Source of the DNA: a virus
DNA length: 64,000 bases
Strand: one strand, 5' to 3'
Virus record (IMG/VR): IMGVR_UViG_3300032046_000014
Span: 20,304-84,303 of that record
Shown: positions 2,453 to 57,611 of the stretch, in pieces
Position numbering within the stretch: position 1 is the first letter of the stretch
Layout of the letters: every line of letters begins with the position of its first letter
The notes under the pieces: generated by a model
Told to the model about the DNA's origin: nothing
Database searches by the model: none
What the model saw: the letters and a program-made list of their open reading frames with translations, nothing else
Translations under genes and position numbers: made by a program

Positions 2453-3379
2453 GTGGATTCAACGCAGAAACTCTATCTTTTCAACGGTGAAACCTACATC
2501 GTGGTTCCCGAGTCAGCATGGCTAGACGAGCTGAAATCAAACCCGCTGGGCCCCACGGCAATCCATGCCCTGGAAGACCCGCTTATTCAGAAAGGCTGGA
2601 CCAAGCTTCTAGGAGTACAGAACCCGAACAATCATGCTTACACGAGCGAATGGTTTTTCGCTGAAACAGGCACACATCTACGGGTCCTGGTTGATGAACA
2701 AGGTCAATTAACCGTTGACGGAGCACCTGTAGGATCGACTACTACAGGTGAAGCAGTGAAAACACTGCAGAAGATCTCTGAAGAGAAAACCGGCAAATGG
2801 ATAACAGCTGTCCAGGAAGTCAAAGATGCAAATGGTACGCCGATTGTTGTGAAAAGAAAAATCTTCATTCCCACTGACAAACTGCGCAAACCACAGATCT
2901 TCGCTCCCGGCAAAGATGCACGTTTGCCGGAACATATAACCAGGATCGGCGCGGAAAAAGGCGGTCCCCATCCTACCATGGATGTTATGACTTCACAGAA
3001 AATGGATGCGATGAACCAGCTTCTCGGCATCTATACGCCTATACTTTTGAAGGAGCAACCGAGCCCCCAAGAAATGTTGCGGCGCTGCAGTTGCATGTTG
3101 GAAATGGCTGAAAAAGAAGAAAATGAAGAAGAACGGCAGCGACTCTGCGAAACAATTGAAAGAGAACTAGCAGCTCTTGAGGCAATGCAGAAGTCTTTGA
3201 AACCAAGCCAACTGAAACCTTTCGTCGGCGACGAAGCAAAAGACAGAGACAAATACCGAAAACTGGCAGACCAAACTGATGATCCGAAAGAAAAGAAAAC
3301 CCTGACGGAGATCAGCCGGCAAGAAGGAGAACACAACGAGAAAATCCGACAGATGATCGCAAGGTCACATGAACAATAG
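2453..3379 (+). CDS. Protein with C-terminal ferritin/rubrerythrin-like helical hairpin
   Basis: DEAKDRDKYRKLADQTDDPKEKKTLTEISRQEGEH (E..Y / ExxH di-iron pattern). Confidence 0.6.
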   Translation: MDSTQKLYLFNGETYIVVPESAWLDELKSNPLGPTAIHALEDPLIQKGWTKLLGVQNPNNHAYTSEWFFAETGTHLRVLVDEQGQLTVDGAPVGSTTTGEAVKTLQKISEEKTGKWITAVQEVKDANGTPIVVKRKIFIPTDKLRKPQIFAPGKDARLPEHITRIGAEKGGPHPTMDVMTSQKMDAMNQLLGIYTPILLKEQPSPQEMLRRCSCMLEMAEKEENEEERQRLCETIERELAALEAMQKSLKPSQLKPFVGDEAKDRDKYRKLADQTDDPKEKKTLTEISRQEGEHNEKIRQMIARSHEQ

Positions 3380-3390
3380 GAGAATGAGAA

Positions 3391-3642
3391 GTGTCAGCTC
3401 AAACTCCCCAAGTTGTCAGAGACTCAGCAGGCATCGTAGGCTATTATGTCATTTTGGAAGTTGTTGTTTCCACGGGCGACACGTTTAAGGTGCAACAGCT
3501 TGCAAGTATCAGCGGAGTCGCAGCTCTCAAAATTGCCGACTGGAGCACAGTCACCTGCACATCTGTAGGTAATGTTGTCACAGTCACTCAGGCGGGACTG
3601 AGCGGTGCAAGGATCGTGGCTGTGGTTGGTGGCCAAAAGTGA
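3391..3642 (+). CDS. Small beta-rich putative virion protein
   Basis: 83 aa, V/T/S-rich, coupled to the next gene. Confidence 0.5.
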   Translation: MSAQTPQVVRDSAGIVGYYVILEVVVSTGDTFKVQQLASISGVAALKIADWSTVTCTSVGNVVTVTQAGLSGARIVAVVGGQK

Positions 3643-4391
3643 CCCTTTTCCCCGGAGCAAAGACTCTTTCTTCAAGCGTCTATCTTAACCCGCATTTCCA
3701 ACAAGAAGCATATCAACCAAAATATTGCACTCTCGAGGACTTCGAAGATTATTATCAAGCAGACGTAACTGCAGATACTGTGCCAACTGTTTCGCAGGCC
3801 CTTAAACTACTACAGATCGGGGAAGCAGAAATCGACTCGCATGAATGGGGAAGATACATTCAGGAAGACGAATACTTAGACGGTCAATATGAAATCCTCA
3901 CCTTCCAATGGCGATACGTCGGCTTCTTCGCCCAAGTCTTTTATCCGCACCACACGAACATTCTACGAGTAATCGACTGCGCTTACAACTCCGGAGGAGT
4001 ACCTTCCAGCGACGCAACCTGGACAAAAGTCACCGAGGGCCCAGCAAACAACAGCAGCTTCGTAGTGCTGAGAAAACCCAAACTGAAAACCCAGGTGGGA
4101 AGTGCACTTCTTTTCTATTCAAACGTACCCTATCCAGGTCCGCTGCGGCTCAGACTCACGTACGAATACGGAATGGACATCGACAAAGCTTTACTGCGTG
4201 AATGGGCCGGCAAAAAAGCAGCCAAAGATGCATTGGAAATGCGTTCCGCAGCAGAACATGTTAACATCAATCTGGATGCGGGGCCATGGGCCGCTCTGTA
4301 CAAGGCATATGGAGACCGACTTAAAGAACTAGCAAATGACTTGTTCCCGAAGAAAGTGCGCAAAATTTGGGTCTATCCAAGCACAATGTAA
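3639..4391 (+). CDS. Putative head-tail adaptor (gp6/gp15-like)
   Basis: YCTLEDF N-terminal motif, EAEID, LTYEYG typical of adaptor proteins. Confidence 0.6.
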   Translation: MTLFPGAKTLSSSVYLNPHFQQEAYQPKYCTLEDFEDYYQADVTADTVPTVSQALKLLQIGEAEIDSHEWGRYIQEDEYLDGQYEILTFQWRYVGFFAQVFYPHHTNILRVIDCAYNSGGVPSSDATWTKVTEGPANNSSFVVLRKPKLKTQVGSALLFYSNVPYPGPLRLRLTYEYGMDIDKALLREWAGKKAAKDALEMRSAAEHVNINLDAGPWAALYKAYGDRLKELANDLFPKKVRKIWVYPSTM

Positions 4392-4441
4392 ACGTCCGCT
4401 AGACCATAACACTAAAAACACAAAACTTCTAAAACAGAACT

Positions 4442-4639
4442 ATGCCAATTCCACAGTTAACATGCCCAAAATGCGACAGCTCTCTCGAACAGGAAATCCG
4501 CGTTTCAAAAATGACCCATATCGTCAAAAATCCGAAGAGATCTACCAAAACCAAACGTGGTTACGTCTATCACTGTCTTCGCTGCAAGACATACTACAAA
4601 CCTGCCATGGCTCTAGTCGAGTGTGTCATAGTCGAATGA
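4442..4639 (+). CDS. Zinc-ribbon protein
   Basis: CPKC...CLRC. Confidence 0.6.
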   Translation: MPIPQLTCPKCDSSLEQEIRVSKMTHIVKNPKRSTKTKRGYVYHCLRCKTYYKPAMALVECVIVE

Positions 4640-5235
4640 CTCTGTCGCCAGCTTTGATGATGCTCATACCGATTCTGATTGTTCTCGTAACAGCATACTT
4701 CTTACATGAACTGTATATCATCATCAGAAAACTCTCGGCTTTCCAGCTTTCTAGCAGTTGGATAAAAATAGGCACCATAATCCTAGCATTCGCCTTGGCT
4801 GCAGTCTCAGGTATGATGGTGTATCAAAGCACTTTTGAAATATTCGCCGCGTCGATGCTGCTTGTCCCTTCACAAGGAACAATAAAAACTGCTGGCCTTG
4901 ACTTTGGAGTATACTGGGACATCACAGGAACTCAGCCCGTGACTTCTGTTGATTGGGGCACATTGAGCCCGGGAGACCACAAAACCGTGACTTTCTGGGT
5001 GAAAAATCAGGCTGCAATCCCGATTTATTGTGGTGCACAGCCGGACAGTGGAACATGGCAGCCTGCAACTGCAAGCAATTATCTTACGTTGAGCTGGACC
5101 TTTGGCACAAAGTCGCTGGGAGTCTCTATGCTTCGACGCATCAACATGACTCTTACCGTGAGCCCGACCATTAAGGACATCACAATTTTCAGTTTCACCA
5201 TAATAGTCAACGCGCAAGAAACTCCTCTCAGCTGA
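4636..5235 (+). CDS. Membrane-anchored beta-sandwich surface protein
   Basis: Likely start ATG 4636; two TM helices, then GVYWD...VDWGTLSPG...VKN...LTLSW. Confidence 0.65.
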   Translation: MTLSPALMMLIPILIVLVTAYFLHELYIIIRKLSAFQLSSSWIKIGTIILAFALAAVSGMMVYQSTFEIFAASMLLVPSQGTIKTAGLDFGVYWDITGTQPVTSVDWGTLSPGDHKTVTFWVKNQAAIPIYCGAQPDSGTWQPATASNYLTLSWTFGTKSLGVSMLRRINMTLTVSPTIKDITIFSFTIIVNAQETPLS

Positions 5236-5276
5236 AACCCCACAAATGTTATTTAGTCCCACAGAAGAAGAATAGT

Positions 5277-5675
5277 TTGACCATTATGCCATCGTTATGG
5301 TTCTGGATAGTCCTATGGCTATGCATTCTAGCAATAGTCATAATTGCTATCTGGTTCGGGAAGCATGTCTCTGTGCCGACGATAACCGTAAACACAAACA
5401 AGGACAGTTACGCCAGGAACGAAGTTGTACAAATCACAGGCACGGTAAAGCAGGGGGCCACCCCCCTTCCAGGAAAGACGGTCAAACTGGCAATCCAAGG
5501 GCCGGGACCTGATGCTTGGTCTTTGCCCGACGCGACCACGGATTCCAACGGCTTATTCAGTACAAGCTGGACCGTCCCCGCTGACGCTGCAAACGGAGAT
5601 TATACCCTGAATGTTTCGTGTTTAGGTTCGTCGGCTAGTAAGACCTTCAGACCGGACCAGATGGCAATCAACTAA
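5277..5675 (+). CDS. Membrane-anchored Ig-like domain protein
   Basis: N-terminal TM helix; TNKDSY..NEVVQITG, TTDSNG.F, GDYTLNV. Confidence 0.65.
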   Translation: MTIMPSLWFWIVLWLCILAIVIIAIWFGKHVSVPTITVNTNKDSYARNEVVQITGTVKQGATPLPGKTVKLAIQGPGPDAWSLPDATTDSNGLFSTSWTVPADAANGDYTLNVSCLGSSASKTFRPDQMAIN

Positions 5676-5719
5676 AGGTATAAACTCCATCGAACAAAAA
5701 AAGAAGGGAGTTACTGAGT

Positions 5720-6013
5720 TTACTCTTCTTCTATGTAGGCTTCGATTTTGGCGAGCAGTTTCAGTATGGATTTCGAGAGCATCATTAGTGTCCCGATGAT
5801 GAGGATGAACACTGTCAGGATGATCCAGTTCACCCATGTCATCATGGTAGCGGTTTCAGCTTGCAGTGCAGGCACTACGACGTATGCTCCGTAGAGAAAG
5901 TTAAGTGCCAAGCCGAAGATCGTCCAGAGCAGTAGAATCAGTGTTTTCAAGCCTTTAGGGATTCCTTTTCCATTTTCTGACAAAATGATCCCTGAAGAAC
6001 CATCGTGTAGCAT
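5720..6013 (-). CDS. Small two-TM membrane protein
   Basis: Two hydrophobic helices. Confidence 0.55.
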   Translation of the reverse strand: MLHDGSSGIILSENGKGIPKGLKTLILLLWTIFGLALNFLYGAYVVVPALQAETATMMTWVNWIILTVFILIIGTLMMLSKSILKLLAKIEAYIEEE

Positions 6014-6137
6014 CTATTTAACTTTTGTTGAGCAACCATAGGGTTTTGCGGGAAAACGAAAAGAGTCTATTATTCCGTTCACTGTTCTGAGAAACGCAAA
6101 ACTTATATCATGAATATACGTTTTATCATTTGGTGAA

Positions 6138-6407
6138 ATGATGCTGCTTAACACAGACCTTGTCCGAGAAGTAGTGAATGAACTTATTAAAGAGGATCGA
6201 GAGTTTCATTCAACCGAATTGGCTGAAGCATTGGGCAAAAGGATTGGTATGGTCATAAAAGTAGATACCGCCAGATACTGGGCGAACAAGTTCACTCTTG
6301 ATGGGTTGCTTGAGAGACGCCCGATCAATAAAAAACTTCGAGTCTACCGCAGAAGAAAAGGCATAGATCTTTCTTCATCATTGACAGTTCAGAAACCATC
6401 TAATTAA
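6138..6407 (+). CDS. Winged-helix DNA-binding protein
   Basis: FHSTELAEAL...TARYWANKFTLDGLLER. Confidence 0.6.
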   Translation: MMLLNTDLVREVVNELIKEDREFHSTELAEALGKRIGMVIKVDTARYWANKFTLDGLLERRPINKKLRVYRRRKGIDLSSSLTVQKPSN

Positions 6408-8617
6408 CTATCAGTGTAACCCTTATATAATCCTTTGACGAAATGCAGAGTTCTTGTTCCACCGCCAACCTTTGCGACATCTACATCTCCATCCCATCCG
6501 TCAAGCCTCGCATCTGGAACAGTGCCGCTGCTGAGATCGGATGCGCTCAAATCAACATTATGCACTGCCCTAGCAGAACTGATTATTTCCGTTCCCTGTA
6601 TCTGCAATGAGCTCGCATTCACTACAGCTGAAGAAGCATCTAACGTCGTGATTATTACAAGCGTATTGAATTTGCCGCTATAACCACGTATGTAAGACCA
6701 TCTATAACTATCATTCCCCAATGCTCTAGCATTATCTGTAAGGGGCAACCAATCAGCATTGACGCCGGCAAGAACTTGAAGCTGATTAAATCTTCCTGTT
6801 TCCGCTCTGATCATCGACCAGCGATAATCATCCTTGCCTAAAGAATAGACATTATCCACACCTGGATAGAGAGACTCGAAAACCTTGCCATAAAGGTAGA
6901 GGTCCATCAGATGAAGTTCTTTCCATCTACGCGGGGGCATTCCCAAATCAAAAGTTTCGTCGCTGTCGGGTATGAAATCATTAGCGGAAGCAATAACGGG
7001 CGCGTTAAGAAGGATTTTGCTGTTCGCAGCGAGAAGAAGTTCGCCGTAGAGCCGTGGATTCTGCAGTGTGAGCAGATTTCCCGTGTACATTAGCACTGTC
7101 TGCGGAGTTTCTTCTGTATCCTTGAAAGCTAGATATCCCGAGTTCTCGAAAGTCAGCACTCCTCTAAACGCCATGTCCATTATGTATAAGCGTCGCCAGT
7201 AGGCGTCCTCACGTCCCAGATCATACATATCGCCTGCCAGAGGCACTATATTATAACAGTCGAATTCTGTTCCCCATTTGGCTTGAAACTCCATTCTTGA
7301 ATCAGTTACATTCCAGAGTTTGAAAGCGTCAATTCCTAATGCGATGACTACGGTTTTTCCGCCGGGAGCCGCGTTTCTCAGTCTGAAAATGTCCGTGGTG
7401 GTTGCTGTTATGTCAACAGTATTCGGTGTTCCACGGCTGTTATCGTCAACAATCAGTCGAGGAATGATTTTCAATCCTCTTGACTGGTCGCTCTGGGCTG
7501 GACTGTCAGCTCTCATGAAGGTGAGATTTTGATTATCAATTAGTTCCGTGTATGGTGGTGGCGGATGGCCTGCGCCAACATCAAAGTCAGCATGGCAGTC
7601 TTGGAGAATGTTGCTTTTGCTTTCTTTTCCTGCTGCTTGATACCAGCTGCTTTCTTTTGTGCCGATCCAGCTGGCATCATGCTCGTCGAAAAGGTCTATT
7701 CCTATGAGGTAATGAGTCCATTCAATGTCTAAGAATCTGTGTTGGCAGTTGTATCCGTGGATTCTGATGAAGAACGCATTGTAGGGTGCTTCGTCATTGC
7801 TTTGATTGCCAACTTTGATGGCTGCATTTGTGGTTTTGGAGATTACAATGTCGTCTCCCCAACACCAGTCACACTGACAGTCAATAGCGGTTGCTATCTG
7901 GTATTCTCCTTCTATTCGAATATTTTTTAATTCTTTAGAATTTCCCTTCAAAGAACTATAGGCCAGATTGATTGCGCTTTCGCTTGCATATCCGGTGAGG
8001 GCTATTACTTTCAGTTGAGCAAAGTCACAGTTGCCAACGCGAATGTGGCCTTTGGCTGAGGTATTCGTGTTTTTGATGGCAATATTTTCTATGTCAACAT
8101 TATTCTTTTTTCCGCTTTCAGTCTTTTCTCTTATTGCATAGTCTGTACCGGTGTAGGTGATGTTCGGTATTATGGTTCCGCCGCCGCCTAGCACAGTATT
8201 GCTCAAGATTAGGATGTTGTCCTTCCATAGAATCGGCGCATTGGTTATAATTGGATCGCGTATGAACAGTATCCCATAGGACATCCGATTGATACAAGCA
8301 TTTGCAACTGCAGCTGCATCTGTTCCATCGATTCCGCCTTCATTGTCTGCTCCTCCAAATTCAAGTCGAAGTGCTTCACCATTTATCCCACAGTAATAAC
8401 CGCCTTCTTCGATGAGTAAATAGGATTCTGCAATCATACTATATGTTGTCATATCCCCGATTTTTCCCACTACTTCAGGCCGGTTGGAGTCAGCATCGCT
8501 GAAAATCAGTGCAAGTTGATCGCCTGGAATGAAGTCTGCTTCGCTCTGAACTCTATAATCCGTGTATGGAGCCGTATTGACCTTGCTGCGATAGACTCTT
8601 ACAGTATAGGTTTTCAT
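6404..8617 (-). CDS. Tail fibre/spike
   Basis: Last gene of the tail operon; beta-helix-like middle; four P..D..(Y/F)xLG....RW repeats. Confidence 0.75.
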   Translation of the reverse strand: MKTYTVRVYRSKVNTAPYTDYRVQSEADFIPGDQLALIFSDADSNRPEVVGKIGDMTTYSMIAESYLLIEEGGYYCGINGEALRLEFGGADNEGGIDGTDAAAVANACINRMSYGILFIRDPIITNAPILWKDNILILSNTVLGGGGTIIPNITYTGTDYAIREKTESGKKNNVDIENIAIKNTNTSAKGHIRVGNCDFAQLKVIALTGYASESAINLAYSSLKGNSKELKNIRIEGEYQIATAIDCQCDWCWGDDIVISKTTNAAIKVGNQSNDEAPYNAFFIRIHGYNCQHRFLDIEWTHYLIGIDLFDEHDASWIGTKESSWYQAAGKESKSNILQDCHADFDVGAGHPPPPYTELIDNQNLTFMRADSPAQSDQSRGLKIIPRLIVDDNSRGTPNTVDITATTTDIFRLRNAAPGGKTVVIALGIDAFKLWNVTDSRMEFQAKWGTEFDCYNIVPLAGDMYDLGREDAYWRRLYIMDMAFRGVLTFENSGYLAFKDTEETPQTVLMYTGNLLTLQNPRLYGELLLAANSKILLNAPVIASANDFIPDSDETFDLGMPPRRWKELHLMDLYLYGKVFESLYPGVDNVYSLGKDDYRWSMIRAETGRFNQLQVLAGVNADWLPLTDNARALGNDSYRWSYIRGYSGKFNTLVIITTLDASSAVVNASSLQIQGTEIISSARAVHNVDLSASDLSSGTVPDARLDGWDGDVDVAKVGGGTRTLHFVKGLYKGYTDS

Positions 8618-10437
8618 GGCAGGACCTCTCCTACCGCCGGGAACATTGCTTTTGAATCCTGCAGACTCTGTGTTCCAGTCTGGCCTTTAGCAATGTCTGT
8701 GAAGACTCCGGACAACAGGTTTGGACTTATTACCTGCGTGAACCTTCTCAACACCAGCTCCTGAATGTACCCATCTGGTCCAAGCTTATCAATGACGCCT
8801 GTTAGAAAGTAGGTGCCAGCAAGACCTGTAATACCATCATCTGTGAAGTTGCAGGCACTACCAGGCAGCAACTCCGGATCCCCGATGACTGTAATTCTAA
8901 TTTCATTCTCGGGATAAAGCAGTTTGAACAATGTCGAATAGGAAAGTACATCACAGTAAATTGGACTTTTCAATGTGCCATCTGTGATTATGGTTTGTTT
9001 TCGCCCATATCTTGCTTGGAAGTTTAGATCAAAACAGGGATTAGTTTGTCCTGAAGGAAATAATGTTGGACTGTTCGTGTCCGCAATAGAATATGCGCCC
9101 TCACCATAAACGGCAACTCTGTTCCGCATCGGAACCCCAGTGACTCTAACTTGCAAGCTTACGATGTCGATGCCCCACTTTTTAACTGCTGGCTTAATAA
9201 TTTCGGTGCTGAGCACGGGTCCCCATGCCAGAGGGAAATCAAAGTTGATGCCTCCTCCCGCTGGATTAATTGTTACCTTACCTGTAACCAAATCTACAGC
9301 TGTAGCTTGAACCATGTCTGCATAAGCCGGAACCATTCCAGGCTTATTGGCACAGATGAATAATGTTTCACCAACCCAACTTGAGAATAATATTGGGTCT
9401 TTAACATAGAGATAAGAATTACCGGCAGTTATGGGCTGCACAACTGCGCTGATGCGAATATGATCCTTCCACATCAATGTTGGAGTACCATAATGCTCGC
9501 CAGAATCCATCCAATAATACATTTTGTAGAGGCTGCTGATTTTCTCTATGGCTTCCAGAATCGTGGAATCATTGAATGGTAAATATGATACCCATGGATT
9601 CCAAGCCCAGTACGCCCAGTTTGGTGAGCCCAGCCCAGCTGTGGATAAACCTGCTCTGGTGCCGATGAGATCTTCCATCATGTCTTGCGGGTACATATCT
9701 ATGTAAGTGCCGTCGAAGTTTGTGCCTTCTGCAAGCTTCGCCATATAGTCGCGGCCTGTCACCCGGACCGTGCTGCCTCCGCCTTTGGTGACTGTATAGT
9801 CTACAGTGTCGATTAGGCCCCATAATCTGATGGTGTTTACGCCGTTATAGCCTATGTATATTTTGACGTTGCGGAAATAGTCAAAGACGGGCTGCTCCCA
9901 TGGGCCAACTAAAGCATTTTGTCCGTCTCGGTTGTCGAAGGTCATGTCAAAGGAAGCAGCTTGGCCGCCGAACTGACGTTCTATATTAAGTTCGATGAGG
10001 CCAACTGGTTCGACATACACGCCTATCTCGTTTGCAACAAGCACCTGCCATGATGGTTTCTGGAAGACTGTTGTGTCTGGAAGAAGTAAAAAGTCAATTC
10101 GGAAAGGAATCTGGCGTTCATAATATTTGATTTGTTCAGCTGAGAATTCCAGTTCCGTGATGACGGCATTTTCGCCCCCGTAATATGTTGGCGTTACAAG
10201 CTTGGCAACTGTGCCGTTTACCCATGCTATTTCCAGTTGGTTCATCACGGTCTCAGCGTCTGTGCCTGAGAGAATTCCTTCTAAACTTACTTTGACAAGG
10301 TGCCGCTGCTTGCTTTCCAGCGTCTGTCCAATTCCAAGAATGTTTTTGCGAGCTACAGACCGCATGTACGTTCTAATCATGCTTTCTGGATTAATAGGAA
10401 AAGTGATACTTCCGAATTTTGTTTGAGTCAAGACCAT
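8614..10437 (-). CDS. Baseplate hub/tail tip protein
   Basis: SFDMTFDN, VKIYIGY, GLID, VTGRD, NRVAVYG, GDPELLPG; position downstream of tape measure. Confidence 0.75.
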   Translation of the reverse strand: MVLTQTKFGSITFPINPESMIRTYMRSVARKNILGIGQTLESKQRHLVKVSLEGILSGTDAETVMNQLEIAWVNGTVAKLVTPTYYGGENAVITELEFSAEQIKYYERQIPFRIDFLLLPDTTVFQKPSWQVLVANEIGVYVEPVGLIELNIERQFGGQAASFDMTFDNRDGQNALVGPWEQPVFDYFRNVKIYIGYNGVNTIRLWGLIDTVDYTVTKGGGSTVRVTGRDYMAKLAEGTNFDGTYIDMYPQDMMEDLIGTRAGLSTAGLGSPNWAYWAWNPWVSYLPFNDSTILEAIEKISSLYKMYYWMDSGEHYGTPTLMWKDHIRISAVVQPITAGNSYLYVKDPILFSSWVGETLFICANKPGMVPAYADMVQATAVDLVTGKVTINPAGGGINFDFPLAWGPVLSTEIIKPAVKKWGIDIVSLQVRVTGVPMRNRVAVYGEGAYSIADTNSPTLFPSGQTNPCFDLNFQARYGRKQTIITDGTLKSPIYCDVLSYSTLFKLLYPENEIRITVIGDPELLPGSACNFTDDGITGLAGTYFLTGVIDKLGPDGYIQELVLRRFTQVISPNLLSGVFTDIAKGQTGTQSLQDSKAMFPAVGEVLP

Positions 10438-43351: not shown

Positions 43352-43513
43352 TGGTGCAGAGGACCGGATTTGAACCGGCGCGTCCGCCTTGCGGAAAGAG
43401 GTTTCTCACAGGCTGAACAGTCGTTCCTAACCGTCCTTAGCTTCGAGCTTACGACTTGAGCTTCGAGCTGGGTCTTAAGCCTCTCGCTTTCAGCCATGCT
43501 TGGCTACCCCTGC
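43352..43513 (-). tRNA. tRNA-Leu(TAA) with a 71-nt 37/38 intron (43403-43473), CCA encoded
   Basis: Long variable arm TCCGC/GCGGA; central BHB helix CTTA/TGAG. Confidence 0.88.
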
Positions 43514-47118: not shown

Positions 47119-47642
47119 ACAGCGATTACCTAAGCGTCAACAAGACAACTGGAAAACCACACTATACATACGGACAGAGCCAACAATGCCATGAACGGGA
47201 GCACGGACTGTTCTTTCATCCGAGAACGGGAGAAAAGATAGTTTGCCTAAGCGAAGCCAACATACGATATAAGACGATCTGGAAGCCAAAAGCGGAACGC
47301 ATGATCGTCAACGGTGACACGGTGATCAAGGTTCCAAGCACCGACAAGGTCAACGGCACAATACCGCAAACAGCTTATCACCGAATAGTAAACGCGATAA
47401 CGGAAACACCAGTCAAGGTATGTAAGACGGGAGACGGTCACACGTTCCTAGAGAATCCCGCAGCATGGCAGCTTAAAGCGGTCAACACTAAGAAGCACTT
47501 TTACGGAGAACGCAAGCATGGATACGCAAGCAAGGCAATAATCGAGGCACACCAACAACCAAGATGGAGACCGCCAGAAAAAGAAGCACCTCATAAGCTG
47601 AGGATAAGCAGCAGCGGTAAACTCAAGCTCTGCAGAATCTAA
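47115..47642 (+). CDS. Basic hypothetical protein
   Basis: ATG 47115 after a GGTGG RBS. Confidence 0.6.
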   Translation: MNSDYLSVNKTTGKPHYTYGQSQQCHEREHGLFFHPRTGEKIVCLSEANIRYKTIWKPKAERMIVNGDTVIKVPSTDKVNGTIPQTAYHRIVNAITETPVKVCKTGDGHTFLENPAAWQLKAVNTKKHFYGERKHGYASKAIIEAHQQPRWRPPEKEAPHKLRISSSGKLKLCRI

Positions 47643-47966
47643 GCGCAGAGTTGGCAAGCGGAACCTAAAAGGTTCATTCCGCAAGCCTCGAGCACTGGGA
47701 ACCTTTGAGAAGCCTAAGTTTCCCTTGGCGAGAAAATCCGCTGAGAAGCCATAGCTTTTCAATCCTAGTTATTCCCTTCGGAGAATAGCTACATACGCAA
47801 GCTCTTTGCGTACGACGGACTGACCCGTAGTGGAATGAAAGTCCGAATCCACGAAATTTTAGTAGTGGATCAAAAAGGGAGAAAATAATAAAGCCCAAGC
47901 CCATGGGCACACATCCAATTAATGACAAAGTTTTCATTAATCCGCAAAGCTCGACAACTTTGCGCT
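47642..47966 (+). ncRNA. Candidate large (325 nt) multi-hairpin ncRNA
   Basis: 12-bp closing helix AGCGCAGAGTTG/CAACTTTGCGCT, inner TCGAGC/GCTCGA, at least eight hairpins. Confidence 0.75.
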
Positions 47967-48043
47967 AAGGTGAAAACTTAAACAAAGATATTATACGATG
48001 AGGTCGCCAGTAGCGCGGCGACTGAGCTAAGCTCCTAACATTC

Positions 48044-48108
48044 TTTTTTCTATTCTCCCTAGCAAGGGATTGACAATGACCGTGAAACTCGGTCGAAAAT
48101 AGAAAAGG
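48044..48108 (+). ncRNA. Type III hammerhead ribozyme, U3-A8 variant; predicted cut after C48055
   Basis: Stem III TTTTCTAT/ATAGAAAA, UUC site, stem I TCCCT/AGGGA, core TTGACAA+T, stem II GACCG/CGGTC, GAAA. Confidence 0.8.
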
Positions 48109-48224
48109 ATGGTGATATAAAGAATGTTAAGCGGAAACCAAGCTCGAAAACTTCGCCTTAGAATACTCGGCGAAGACCAGTACAAGATCCTCATGCAACT
48201 GCATGGACGGAAGGTGAAGACGCA

Positions 48225-48467
48225 ATGAGAATACCAGTAGGCAATAGTTGTTCATGGCTTCCAGCTGAAGCGCTCGCAAAGATCACGAAGCTGCAGCTGT
48301 ACCGTGAAAGATGCATGAACTGGAACGTCAAAGCCTTCATGCCTAAGCAGGAAGCGGCGTTGGTAAGAGTTCCTATGACAGCGAAGCCACAGGAAACATT
48401 AGCGAGCCTGTTTGAACGATTGCAGATTCTCACAGACAAGATGGATGAAGGGCTGCAAAAATGTTGA
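48225..48467 (+). CDS. Hypothetical protein
   Basis: AGGTGA RBS. Confidence 0.55.
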   Translation: MRIPVGNSCSWLPAEALAKITKLQLYRERCMNWNVKAFMPKQEAALVRVPMTAKPQETLASLFERLQILTDKMDEGLQKC

Positions 48468-48868
48468 ATGCAAACCAAGAACTTGCTCGGAACATAGCGC
48501 ACTTACAGGAAGTCTACAATAGCGATTGCGCTTTCTGCAATCGGTACGGTGACTGCCACCCATGTCCCGACCCGGATCTCCTGCAGAAACGAGCCGACGA
48601 ATGGGCAGCAGAATATGTCCTCACCGACATCGTACCATTACTGTTGAAGCAAATCCAAGAGCTCCAGTTTAAAGCTGGCCTCACAGGCAAGACCAAGCTA
48701 GTGCATGTCACAGTGTACATGGATGAAGAAGGCAACATAGTTCTCGGCGGCTACGGATGGCAAGAATTCTACAACTATGAACAGGTTCAGACTCAACGCT
48801 GGCGAGATCTTGAAGCTGAACGGATAAGACGTGCAGTCGAACCCTTGCCAATGCTGGTCGGACCCTAA
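48461..48868 (+). CDS. Hypothetical protein with Cys cluster
   Basis: CAFC....C.PC. Confidence 0.6.
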   Translation: MLNANQELARNIAHLQEVYNSDCAFCNRYGDCHPCPDPDLLQKRADEWAAEYVLTDIVPLLLKQIQELQFKAGLTGKTKLVHVTVYMDEEGNIVLGGYGWQEFYNYEQVQTQRWRDLEAERIRRAVEPLPMLVGP

Positions 48869-48881
48869 CCCTTCCTTTTGT

Positions 48882-48954
48882 GGACCGTAAGTTGAGCAGC
48901 CTCCACGACGGCGCGGTCTGGAACAGGATTATTCACCTGTACTAAGTGCTCAGC
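48882..48954 (+). ncRNA. HDV-like self-cleaving ribozyme 1; predicted cut 5' of G48882
   Basis: P1 GGACCGT/GCGGTCT with G1.U; P2 GTTGAGCA/TGCTCAGC; P3 GCC/GGC; L3 TCCACGAC; P1.1 CC/GG; P4 ACAGG/CCTGT; J4/2 ACTAAG (catalytic C48942). Confidence 0.92.
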
Positions 48955-48987
48955 AGATTACCTGCAGGTGCAGGAGGTGAAACAAAG

Positions 48988-49821
48988 ATGATGAAAAAGC
49001 AAGTTGCGATACTTCTGGTTGCTGCATTGGCAACTGTACTTGTAGCTTCAGCCATAGTCAGCGCATGTGATCCTCCCAGATGTCCACCGGGTCCTCAAGG
49101 ACCAATTGGACCAGCAGGTCCTAAAGGTGACAAAGGAGATGTAGGAGCAACTGGCCCAACAGGACCTCAAGGTGCAACAGGAGCAACAGGACCAGAAGGT
49201 GCAATAGGACCAATGGGTTCTCAAGGACCCAGAGGAATAAGAGGACCGCAAGGTGAAACAGGATCTCAAGGGCTAACAGGACAGGCTGGAATCAACGGAA
49301 CCGATGGAGTTAACGGAACTGACGGAGTCAACGGAACAGATGGAACTGACGGAAAAGACGGTTCCACTTGGTATAATGGAAACGGCACAGCAACTTCAGA
49401 CTTAGGCAAGGATGGAGACTACTACCTACAAACAACAAACGGTGACATCCTCTACAAGATAGAAGGAACTTGGACTTTCCTGATGAACATCAAAGGCTCC
49501 GATGGAAGCAATGGACTCAACGGACTCGATGGACTCAACGGACAAGACGGCATCGATGGGAAAGACGGAATTGATGGTCTCAATGGAACAGATGGAGAGG
49601 ATGGTAAAGATGGACTTGACGGTCTTAACGGACAAGATGGACTCGATGGAGAAGATGGATTCAACGGACAAGACGGCAATGATGGAACAGACGGAATGTC
49701 TGCACAATCTTCAAGCGGATGCGATTGCAAACTATTGATTCTAATGCTCTTCCTGACCATGATAGCAATCTGGATAATCGCAATCAAAATGCTAAGGTGC
49801 AAGTGCAAGCAGCCCAACTAA
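48988..49821 (+). CDS. Collagen-like surface protein (signal peptide, Gly-X-Y repeats, C-terminal TM anchor)
   Basis: GGAGGTGA RBS; two Gly-X-Y blocks; several NGT sequons. Confidence 0.88.
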   Translation: MMKKQVAILLVAALATVLVASAIVSACDPPRCPPGPQGPIGPAGPKGDKGDVGATGPTGPQGATGATGPEGAIGPMGSQGPRGIRGPQGETGSQGLTGQAGINGTDGVNGTDGVNGTDGTDGKDGSTWYNGNGTATSDLGKDGDYYLQTTNGDILYKIEGTWTFLMNIKGSDGSNGLNGLDGLNGQDGIDGKDGIDGLNGTDGEDGKDGLDGLNGQDGLDGEDGFNGQDGNDGTDGMSAQSSSGCDCKLLILMLFLTMIAIWIIAIKMLRCKCKQPN

Positions 49822-49843
49822 AACCAACAGACTCTTTCTTTGT

Positions 49844-49901
49844 GAGTTGCAAGCTGAGACGCCTCCACGTGGCGCAACTTGGAATACGCGAAGAGCTCAG
49901 C
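49844..49901 (+). ncRNA. Minimal (P4-less) HDV-like ribozyme 2; predicted cut 5' of G49844
   Basis: P1 GAGTTGC/GCAACTT with G1.U; P2 GCTGAG/CTCAGC; P3 GCC/GGC; L3 TCCACGT; GG; J4/2 CGAA. Confidence 0.85.
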
Positions 49902-49928: not shown

Positions 49929-50105
49929 ATGACTGTAGTATTCTTGGTGCAACGACTGGTCCACGGCAGATGGCAAAGCATCGGAGCTGTCTTCTGCAGG
50001 TACGACCGCAAGGCAGCACTACACCGCGCGCATGAAAACCCAATCATGCATGAACTACTGGCTGGCCACTGTGAAGACGTAGAGTTTTTGAGGTGGCTAC
50101 TGTGA
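49929..50105 (+). CDS. 58-aa hypothetical protein
   Basis: GGAGTGTGA RBS; manual translation MTVVFLVQRL... Confidence 0.5.
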   Translation: MTVVFLVQRLVHGRWQSIGAVFCRYDRKAALHRAHENPIMHELLAGHCEDVEFLRWLL

Positions 50106-50786: not shown

Positions 50787-50847
50787 CCAAGCGTAATCGC
50801 TTGGCAGCAGGAAACCGCTGAGCCCAAATTGAAGGGCTGAAAAAGAG
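50787..50847 (+). ncRNA. Three-hairpin RNA motif, copy A
   Basis: Homologous to 57551..57611 with compensatory changes. Confidence 0.7.
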
Positions 50848-57297: not shown

Positions 57298-57560
57298 TGC
57301 AGGATAGGCCAGTTGACGAGCGTTTGAAGGAGATGTTGGATAGGGTAGAAGCGGCGGCGAAGAGACTTAGAAAATGGAAGCGGAGAAACATTGTAAGGGG
57401 ATGGCATCCGACTAAAGAGAAGTGCAGCGAATGCAGCAGGCCGCTCCCGTACAACAATGATAGGAAACGAAGCCTTTGTAACCCGTGCAGCGCAAGAAGA
57501 CAAAGCCGCTTGAACAGGCAGAAGCACCTGCAACAAAAGGAGAGAGAAAACCAAGCGTAA
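57294..57560 (+). CDS. Basic zinc-finger protein
   Basis: CSEC...CNPC. Confidence 0.6.
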   Translation: MMQDRPVDERLKEMLDRVEAAAKRLRKWKRRNIVRGWHPTKEKCSECSRPLPYNNDRKRSLCNPCSARRQSRLNRQKHLQQKERENQA

Positions 57561-57611
57561 CTCGTTTGGCAGCAACGGAGCCGCTGGGCACAAGTGAGTG
57601 CCGAAAAAGAG
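57551..57611 (+). ncRNA. Three-hairpin RNA motif, copy B
   Basis: Homologous to 50787..50847. Confidence 0.7.

Follow-up and report, generated by a model that had tools for sequence, protein, structure and literature searches.

Two HDV-like ribozymes and a hammerhead-like element in the gene spacers of an archaeal tailed virus

The 64-kb stretch of DNA analysed here (bases 20304-84303 of the 84,303-base IMG/VR record IMGVR_UViG_3300032046_000014, estimated completeness 78%; hereafter the window, to whose numbering positions refer) belongs to a tailed virus accepted as infecting archaea. It carries, within 1.9 kb of a + strand gene module, two ribozymes of the hepatitis delta virus (HDV) type, designated elements 2 and 3, preceded by a probable hammerhead with a variant core. 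All three are co-oriented with the genes and each occupies a spacer between open reading frames (ORFs). The reading that best accommodates the folds, their rarity by chance, the family membership with its covariation, the positions, and the presence or absence of a gene cassette between relatives is that these elements would cut a common transcript into gene-sized cassettes, and we consider this probable from the sequence, together with the co-transcription and the effects on expression that it presumes. Direct indexing confirmed the elements with their coordinates and the cuts after 48055, 48881 and 49843 proposed in the initial annotation of the window; its count of three self-cleaving ribozymes holds for two complete HDV-like folds, while the hammerhead, having a variant core and no Rfam score, can be called probable only.

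Fold and family of the HDV-like elements

Both HDV-like elements possess all parts of the double pseudoknot (P1, P1.1, P2 and P3, with or without P4) in canonical order. In each of them a 7-bp P1 opens with a G.U wobble, and L3 starts with UCC, the two cytosines of which can pair with the GG following P1 (P1.1). The wobble at the P1 base and the J4/2 cytosine equivalent to C75 are represented by G48882.U48919 and C48942 in element 2 and by G49844.U49880 and C49889 in element 3. According to direct indexing, element 2 has P1 GGACCGT/GCGGTCT with the wobble at G1.U, P2 of 8 bp, P3 GCC/GGC, L3 UCCACGAC, P1.1 CC/GG, a P4 hairpin and J4/2 CUAAG, while element 3 combines P1 GAGTTGC/GCAACTT and P2 of 6 bp with the same P3/L3 core (L3 UCCACGU), a P4 shrunk to the 6-nt linker AAUACG, and J4/2 CGAA. 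Comparison of the two copies reveals a P3/L3/P1.1 core that is identical and P2 and 3′ ends that are nearly alike, P1 having completely diverged with 4 of its 7 pairs changed on both sides. Both cut sites share the context TTTGT-G, the predicted scission falling between T and G.

A descriptor of this fold applied to both strands of the 84,303-base virus gave exactly two matches, elements 2 and 3, and none in 40 dinucleotide shuffles. The search for further members exploited a pattern consisting of the fixed core and the 3′ strand ends of P1, with the 5′ strand of P1 left out, and covered viral and metagenome contigs. It returned 54 unique segments, 14 of which have a perfect 7-bp P1 partner upstream (about 0.7 expected by chance); all 14 also possess P2 and the J4/2 cytosine, and the P1, P2 and P4 sequences of the family members from outside are unrelated. 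In the family alignment P1 is 99% paired and contains four fully covarying positions, a count made on sequences selected for perfect P1, and the pair at the base of P1 is G.U in 14 of the 16 aligned members. From 16 such outside sequences, belonging to other viruses and metagenomes (alignment A7), a covariance model (R1) was constructed; run over the window, it gave two matches only, element 2 with 41.2 bits (E 5.7e-7) and element 3 with 50.3 bits (E 7.1e-9), this test being not fully independent because the core of the window elements had supplied the pattern by which the family was collected. As a negative control, a 14-base core pattern was sought in viral contigs and produced 118 matches, with the ribozyme fold in none of them beyond the virus itself and its relative. 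Substitution of the J4/2 cytosine in the descriptor by A, G or U left 7, 4 and 4 passes, respectively, versus 14 with C, a control that is not clean owing to the loose definition of J4/2. The search of element 3 by blastn against 50,697 phage records gave no match. Elements 2 and 3 are well supported as genuine members of the HDV-like family, for which self-cleavage is predicted.

The closest published counterparts are theta ribozymes, minimal HDV-like ribozymes from Caudoviricetes phages of the gut that are self-cleaving in vitro and have, in hundreds of copies not associated with tRNAs, settled in non-coding regions with more than 96% of them sense to the nearest gene (Kienbeck et al., 2024; PMC10879173). 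Element 3 can be divided into the same succession of segments as the sequences in the supplement of that work, sharing with them a 7-bp P1 ending in GC, J1/2 AA, P2, a 3-bp P3, L3 U-CC-ACGU, the GG, a 6-nt linker in place of P4, J4/2 C-N-A-A and the 3′ strand of P2. It differs from the retrieved theta examples in P3 (GCC/GGC in the window versus ACC/GGT) and in its source, a sediment archaeal virus rather than a gut bacteriophage; element 2, in which P4 is complete, is for this reason not assigned to theta. The tRNA-associated subclass of theta is cut within 5 nt of a tRNA 3′ end, while both window elements follow stop codons of protein genes. Two other members of the family, L125:2944-3079 and L184:957-1099, start directly after tRNA genes within tRNA clusters, and this placement abutting tRNA 3′ ends is the published context of theta ribozymes.

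The hammerhead-like element and its variant core

The first of the three elements has the layout of a type III hammerhead: loops cap stems I and II (5 bp each), and the 11-bp stem III is open. Stem III pairs 48044-48054 with 48098-48108; stem I (48056-48069) is closed by the loop AGCA; the core UUGACAA (48070-48076) is followed by an extra U at 48077, by stem II (48078-48094) and by GAA (48095-48097), which places G5 at 48072 and G12 at 48095. The minimum-free-energy fold of the segment is a three-way junction (z = -2.6), and the hammerhead consensus is kept at UGA with G5 and A6, at A9, at G10.1-C11.1 closing stem II, at G12 A13 A14, at A15.1-U16.1 and at C17. A descriptor for type III hammerheads in which positions 3 and 8 may form any Watson-Crick pair and one additional base is optional found this segment as the sole match in the genome and nothing in 300 shuffles, an earlier run of 100 having given 0.02 per shuffle; chance does not explain the fold.

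The core departs from the consensus in three respects: C3 is replaced by U3, G8 by A8, and an extra U stands between A9 and G10.1. In the active hammerhead C3 and G8 pair with each other, and an extra U after A9 reportedly occurs, and is tolerated, in natural hammerheads of the viroid type. The exchange to U3-A8 is documented as natural covariation among the hammerheads of Penelope-like elements (PMC4209133), therefore the variant may still act as a hammerhead. If so, the combination of U3-A8 with the extra U represents a core variant that is missed by standard models: Rfam hammerhead models gave no match to the element at E<=10, even on a 91-base stretch.

The absence of an Rfam score and the three core positions off consensus also suit another explanation, according to which the segment is a non-catalytic, conserved three-way junction serving as leader or terminator by virtue of its T-tract and hairpins, so that only the HDV-like elements cut. 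Comparison with relatives yields no covariation either. In the only close relative found in IMG/VR (L002/L121, 97% identical upstream of ORF80) one base of loop 1 differs and the stems are unchanged, this relative being too close for covariation; among the differences listed for the contig from sequencing run X7 none falls in the element, which is suggestive only; and a search of viral contigs for the core with variable inner pairs and loop of stem II retrieved the same relative and no other virus. Besides, the T6 tract forms the 5′ arm of stem III and could alone end archaeal transcripts. Against a purely structural role stand the remaining hammerhead-defining positions, all of them present (UGA, GAA, A15.1-U16.1, C17 and G10.1-C11.1), the fact that the two non-consensus bases are the very ones known to covary in natural U3-A8 hammerheads, the location of the element in the same kind of slot as both HDV-like ribozymes, and the existence of documented core-variant hammerheads in archaeal viruses. 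On balance we regard the non-catalytic option as rather unlikely and incline to the view that the element is a working ribozyme, rated as probable only because no Rfam model scores it and its relatives lack covariation.

A precedent is the variant hammerhead of haloviruses HF1 and HF2, located 13 nt upstream of an early helicase gene, the first in an early polycistronic transcript; mapping placed the 5′ end of this transcript no more than 3 nt from the site of cleavage (PMC3088659). Common to both cases are an archaeal tailed virus, a non-consensus core and proximity to the downstream gene, 13 nt there versus 15 nt here between the end of the hammerhead and the ATG of the 34-codon ORF, the first of three small ORFs (PMC3088659, PMC7230728). 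The cores deviate differently, by a two-nucleotide insertion beside C3 in the haloviruses and by the U3-A8 swap with an extra U after A9 in the window; moreover, the mapped 5′ end supports cleavage in vivo for the former, cleavage being a prediction for the latter. The idea that the hammerhead matures the 3′ end of an upstream 325-nt RNA, put forward in the initial annotation, fits loosely, since the cut lies 89 nt beyond the proposed end and the T6 tract comes 5 nt before the cut.

Proposed processing of the transcript and alternative roles

In the proposed mechanism the + strand genes from about 47.1 kb onward would be transcribed as one long message, with which the coding strand and the AT skew agree. 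The HDV-like ribozymes would cut the nascent RNA at their own 5′ edges, after 48881 and 49843, and the hammerhead probably after 48055, leaving upstream fragments that end in 2′,3′-cyclic phosphate and downstream fragments that start with 5′-OH and keep the compact ribozyme fold as a leader just before the Shine-Dalgarno (SD) sequence. One cassette (48056-48881) would comprise the retained ribozyme fold at its 5′ end and the small-ORF block, and the other (48882-49843) the collagen-like gene with its SD. Neighbouring cistrons would be uncoupled in this way, the ribozymes acting as insulators or punctuation marks that yield distinct mRNAs whose ends are defined and whose stability and translation are independent. 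A similar use of the fold is described for the 5′ HDV-like ribozymes of R2 and L1Tc retrotransposons, which cut at their own 5′ edge, free the downstream coding RNA and remain on it as a structured leader, although in those eukaryotic retroelements a role akin to an internal ribosome entry site is proposed, while in the window an ordinary SD follows the ribozyme (PMC6765202).

Element 2 begins 13 nt after the last stop codon of the small-ORF block and ends 33 nt before the ATG of the collagen-like gene at 48988, with the SD between them; element 3 begins 22 nt after the stop codon of the collagen-like gene and ends 27 nt before the ATG at 49929. Since a promoter would not fit into spacers of 13 and 22 nt, co-transcription of elements 2 and 3 with the upstream gene is expected, barring promoters inside the upstream coding regions. 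The self-processing into 48056-48881 and 48882-49843 suggested initially is reasonable for this reason, and likewise in view of the intergenic and co-oriented placement and of the prophage precedent, in which polycistronic transcripts of about 2 kb were cut in vitro by all of their clustered hammerheads and the processing of long transcripts into separate mRNAs was proposed (Perreault et al., 2011; PMC3088659); what stands at the level of prediction is the cleavage.

The same slot is used repeatedly in unrelated viruses. A 62-kb viral genome (G001, IMGVR_UViG_3300048599_000246) contains six co-oriented copies of the HDV-like subfamily within 8 kb (2556-10331, +), and three co-oriented copies each are present in L138:11523-12193 and L237:360-881, the three-copy carriers being described as a lake metagenome contig and a Bacteroidales metagenome-assembled genome (MAG). 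As in the window, every copy in these arrays follows a stop codon or hairpin and precedes an SD-ATG, and recurrence in the same slot, up to six times, supports a general role as intercistronic insulators. In prokaryote genomes none of the 41 matches to the core pattern is archaeal, and the two true ribozymes among them reside in Bacteroidota MAGs; R1 found no match in the genomes of HCTV-1, HVTV-1 and Methanofastidiosa virus vir519, and the literature, searched for archaeal viruses with HDV-like ribozymes, offered nothing relevant. Within the searches made, true members of the subfamily otherwise occur in bacterial or phage settings only.

Several observations weigh against the cutting of the transcript, in addition to the departures of the hammerhead and to the selection inherent in the family alignment and model. 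The search with Rfam models, proposed in the initial annotation as a check, gave the hammerhead no score and left both HDV-like elements below the gathering thresholds, with 22.3 bits for element 2 (RF00094 HDV_ribozyme, threshold 50) and 21.5 bits, E 0.51, for element 3 (RF02682 HDV-F-prausnitzii, threshold 44); at these thresholds the whole window yields tRNAs only. Family members from outside reach 43.9 bits on RF02682, where gathering is 44. The single ribozyme of L002, described below, has a C.A mismatch in P1. The sequencing runs that contain the locus are sediment and groundwater DNA assemblies, with no run recorded as RNA among them. Finally, T-rich or pyrimidine tracts directly precede all three elements on the + strand (48044-48051, 48872-48879 and 49835-49841). 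Oligo-T is a signal for termination of transcription in archaea, and the tracts, perhaps coupled to the ribozymes, may act as leaky terminators; were transcription to stop there, a part or even the majority of the transcripts might lack the ribozymes.

The termini expected from cleavage led the initial annotation to propose that host RtcB could stabilise or circularise the pieces. In this scheme the ligase would join doubly cut RNAs into exonuclease-resistant circular mRNAs, exemplified by a 962-nt collagen circle (48882-49843). RtcB is universal in archaea and routinely circularises excised RNAs; 5′-OH and 2′,3′-cyclic phosphate ends fit its substrate, it was found in all four archaeal control genomes, and the collagen cassette carries its own SD and a complete ORF. 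The virus itself has no RtcB or Rnl-type RNA ligase family in the 84-kb record, the 5′ ends would be locked in P1 of the HDV fold or in stem I of the hammerhead with no helix seen to join both ends, and spliced or circular products of clustered hammerheads were sought by Perreault et al. (PMC3088659) and none was detected. Circularisation appears very unlikely on these grounds, and this part of the original proposal is not upheld. Were it true, the ribozyme pairs would be a natural, virus-encoded version of the engineered twister/RtcB systems for expression of circular RNA, and the fact that one relative has the cassette and the other lacks it might also stem from exchange at ribozyme boundaries.

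Synteny in related viruses, another check proposed at the outset, is partly preserved: L002 has homologues of ORF135 and ORF58 and a ribozyme after the former, directly before the latter, and lacks the collagen-like gene and the second ribozyme. The remaining copy is chimeric (alignment A8), its 5′ flank, P1, P3 and P4 resembling element 2, while from J4/2 and the 3′ strand of P2 onward it resembles element 3 together with the downstream flank and gene of the latter. Either about 950 nt comprising leader, gene and second ribozyme were inserted in the window virus, or they were deleted in L002 by recombination between similar 3′ ends; on this comparison the collagen-like gene behaves as an accessory cassette bounded by ribozymes. 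The two viruses offer a natural comparison, one possessing the gene cassette and its ribozyme and the close relative lacking them. The ORF135 homologue of L002 is itself split by an insertion of about 150 nt (L002:3190-3340, no Rfam match), in which a stop codon ends the first half and a new SD and ATG serve the second.

One may ask whether marking such cassettes, rather than cutting RNA, is what the copies are for. According to this explanation they would label, or recombine, an exchangeable accessory cassette (a “moron”), the collagen-like gene travelling with one ribozyme, and RNA cleavage would be secondary, insulating the inserted genes. The chimeric single ribozyme of L002 in the absence of the collagen-like gene agrees with it, as do the close similarity of the window copies in P2 and the 3′ end combined with the full divergence of P1, and the nature of the inter-ribozyme genes in other viruses, which are small unrelated ORFs, as is also the case with hammerheads (PMC6155905). 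However, the explanation rests on one presence/absence comparison, for which a simple deletion between two similar 3′ ends accounts equally well. We regard it as improbable for the principal function; being compatible with and complementary to processing, it does not oppose the cutting of the transcript into cassettes.

The initial annotation, aware of no such system described in an archaeal virus, overstates the novelty: ribozyme clusters and the HF1/HF2 hammerhead of an archaeal virus were reported in 2011 (PMC3088659), and intergenic theta and HDV-like ribozymes in sense orientation in phages in 2024 (PMC10879173). As the intergenic layout has been known in phages since 2011, the locus adds a good example to an established kind of system. 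Prophage and phage clusters likewise consist of several co-oriented elements in consecutive intergenic spacers flanking small and poorly conserved viral genes, with different ribozyme classes near one another and processing into gene-length mRNAs proposed; they are bacterial and built mostly of hammerhead, twister, pistol and hatchet ribozymes, unlike the present locus with its archaeal host and two HDV-like elements of three. Three features appear to be new, namely the HDV-like/theta class in an archaeal virus, its combination with a U3-A8 hammerhead variant, and the cassette polymorphism between relatives. Reviews describe how ribozymes of different classes in bacteria and phages cluster together and flank small non-conserved ORFs, and they regard the role of such clusters in phage operons, on which the locus bears, as an open question (PMC6155905, PMC6765202).

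Viral setting and neighbouring features

Assignment of the virus to archaeal hosts is based on its capsid and on one tRNA. The window encodes an HK97-type major capsid protein, a prohead protease and a portal (Pfam), and among 50,697 phage records the capsid protein matches archaeal tailed viruses solely, namely the Haloarcula viruses HCTV-1, HVTV-1 and HCTV-5 and one Methanofastidiosa virus. A virus-encoded tRNA-Leu(UAA) with a long variable arm (43355-43513, -) scores 31.3 bits with Rfam, was missed by ARAGORN and contains a 74-nt intron in the anticodon loop; 74 nt is too short for a group I intron. The capsid matches together with the anticodon-loop intron are the reason to accept the virus as archaeal.

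Beyond about 46.9 kb the genes of the window lie on the + strand up to its end, and AT skew is strongly positive. This module encodes an AAA+ ATPase, an ATP-dependent DNA ligase and a C5 methylase (Pfam), a composition that would fit a replication or early-type module. The coordinates of the features at the ribozyme locus are collected in Table 1.

Table 1. Features of the ribozyme locus, in window coordinates
Feature	Position	Strand	Remarks
Non-coding hairpin-rich stretch, ~400 nt	47642-48043	+	Flanked by ORF178 and the hammerhead; two hairpins and the T6 tract at its end
Two short hairpins, then T-rich tract	48001-48051	+	Terminator-like; tract TTTTTTCT at 48044-48051 is the 5′ strand of stem III
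Probable type III hammerhead, variant core	48044-48108	+	Predicted cleavage after C17 = 48055
Three small overlapping ORFs (34, 80 and 135 aa)	48124-48868	+	From ORF list; no Pfam family
HDV-like ribozyme with full P4 (element 2)	48882-48954	+	Predicted cut between 48881 and 48882; putative catalytic C = 48942
Collagen-like membrane protein gene	48988-49821	+	Pfam Collagen E 1.8e-30; SD GGAGGTGA at 48975-48982
Minimal theta-type HDV-like ribozyme (element 3)	49844-49901	+	Predicted cut between 49843 and 49844; putative catalytic C = 49889
Small ORF, 58 aa	49929-50105	+	Start 27 nt past element 3, behind GGAGTGTGA leader; conserved in L002

The DNA of the virus occurs in sediment metagenomes, and a relative of about 93% (run X7) is present in a groundwater assembly; contigs aligned over the locus showed no joints at the ribozyme sites. 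Protein searches with ORF135 and ORF178 in IMG/VR gave one related virus each and no more, a search with the AAA ATPase found none, the ORF178 alignment retrieved no relative from metagenome contigs, and a large protein database returned the window's own protein and the L002 fragment only; an identical ORF135 protein is present on six contigs. The small overlapping ORFs are conserved in L002 with an in-frame 3-nt indel. The hairpin-rich stretch upstream of the hammerhead has no Rfam match; L002 conserves about 97% of it, and the differences listed for the relative from run X7 include several in this stretch.

Further along the + strand, a three-hairpin motif with no match to Rfam families is repeated at 50787-50847 and 57551-57611, about 30 nt before start codons and so in a slot similar to that of the ribozymes. 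In the two copies the first two hairpins are nearly identical and the third carries compensatory changes.

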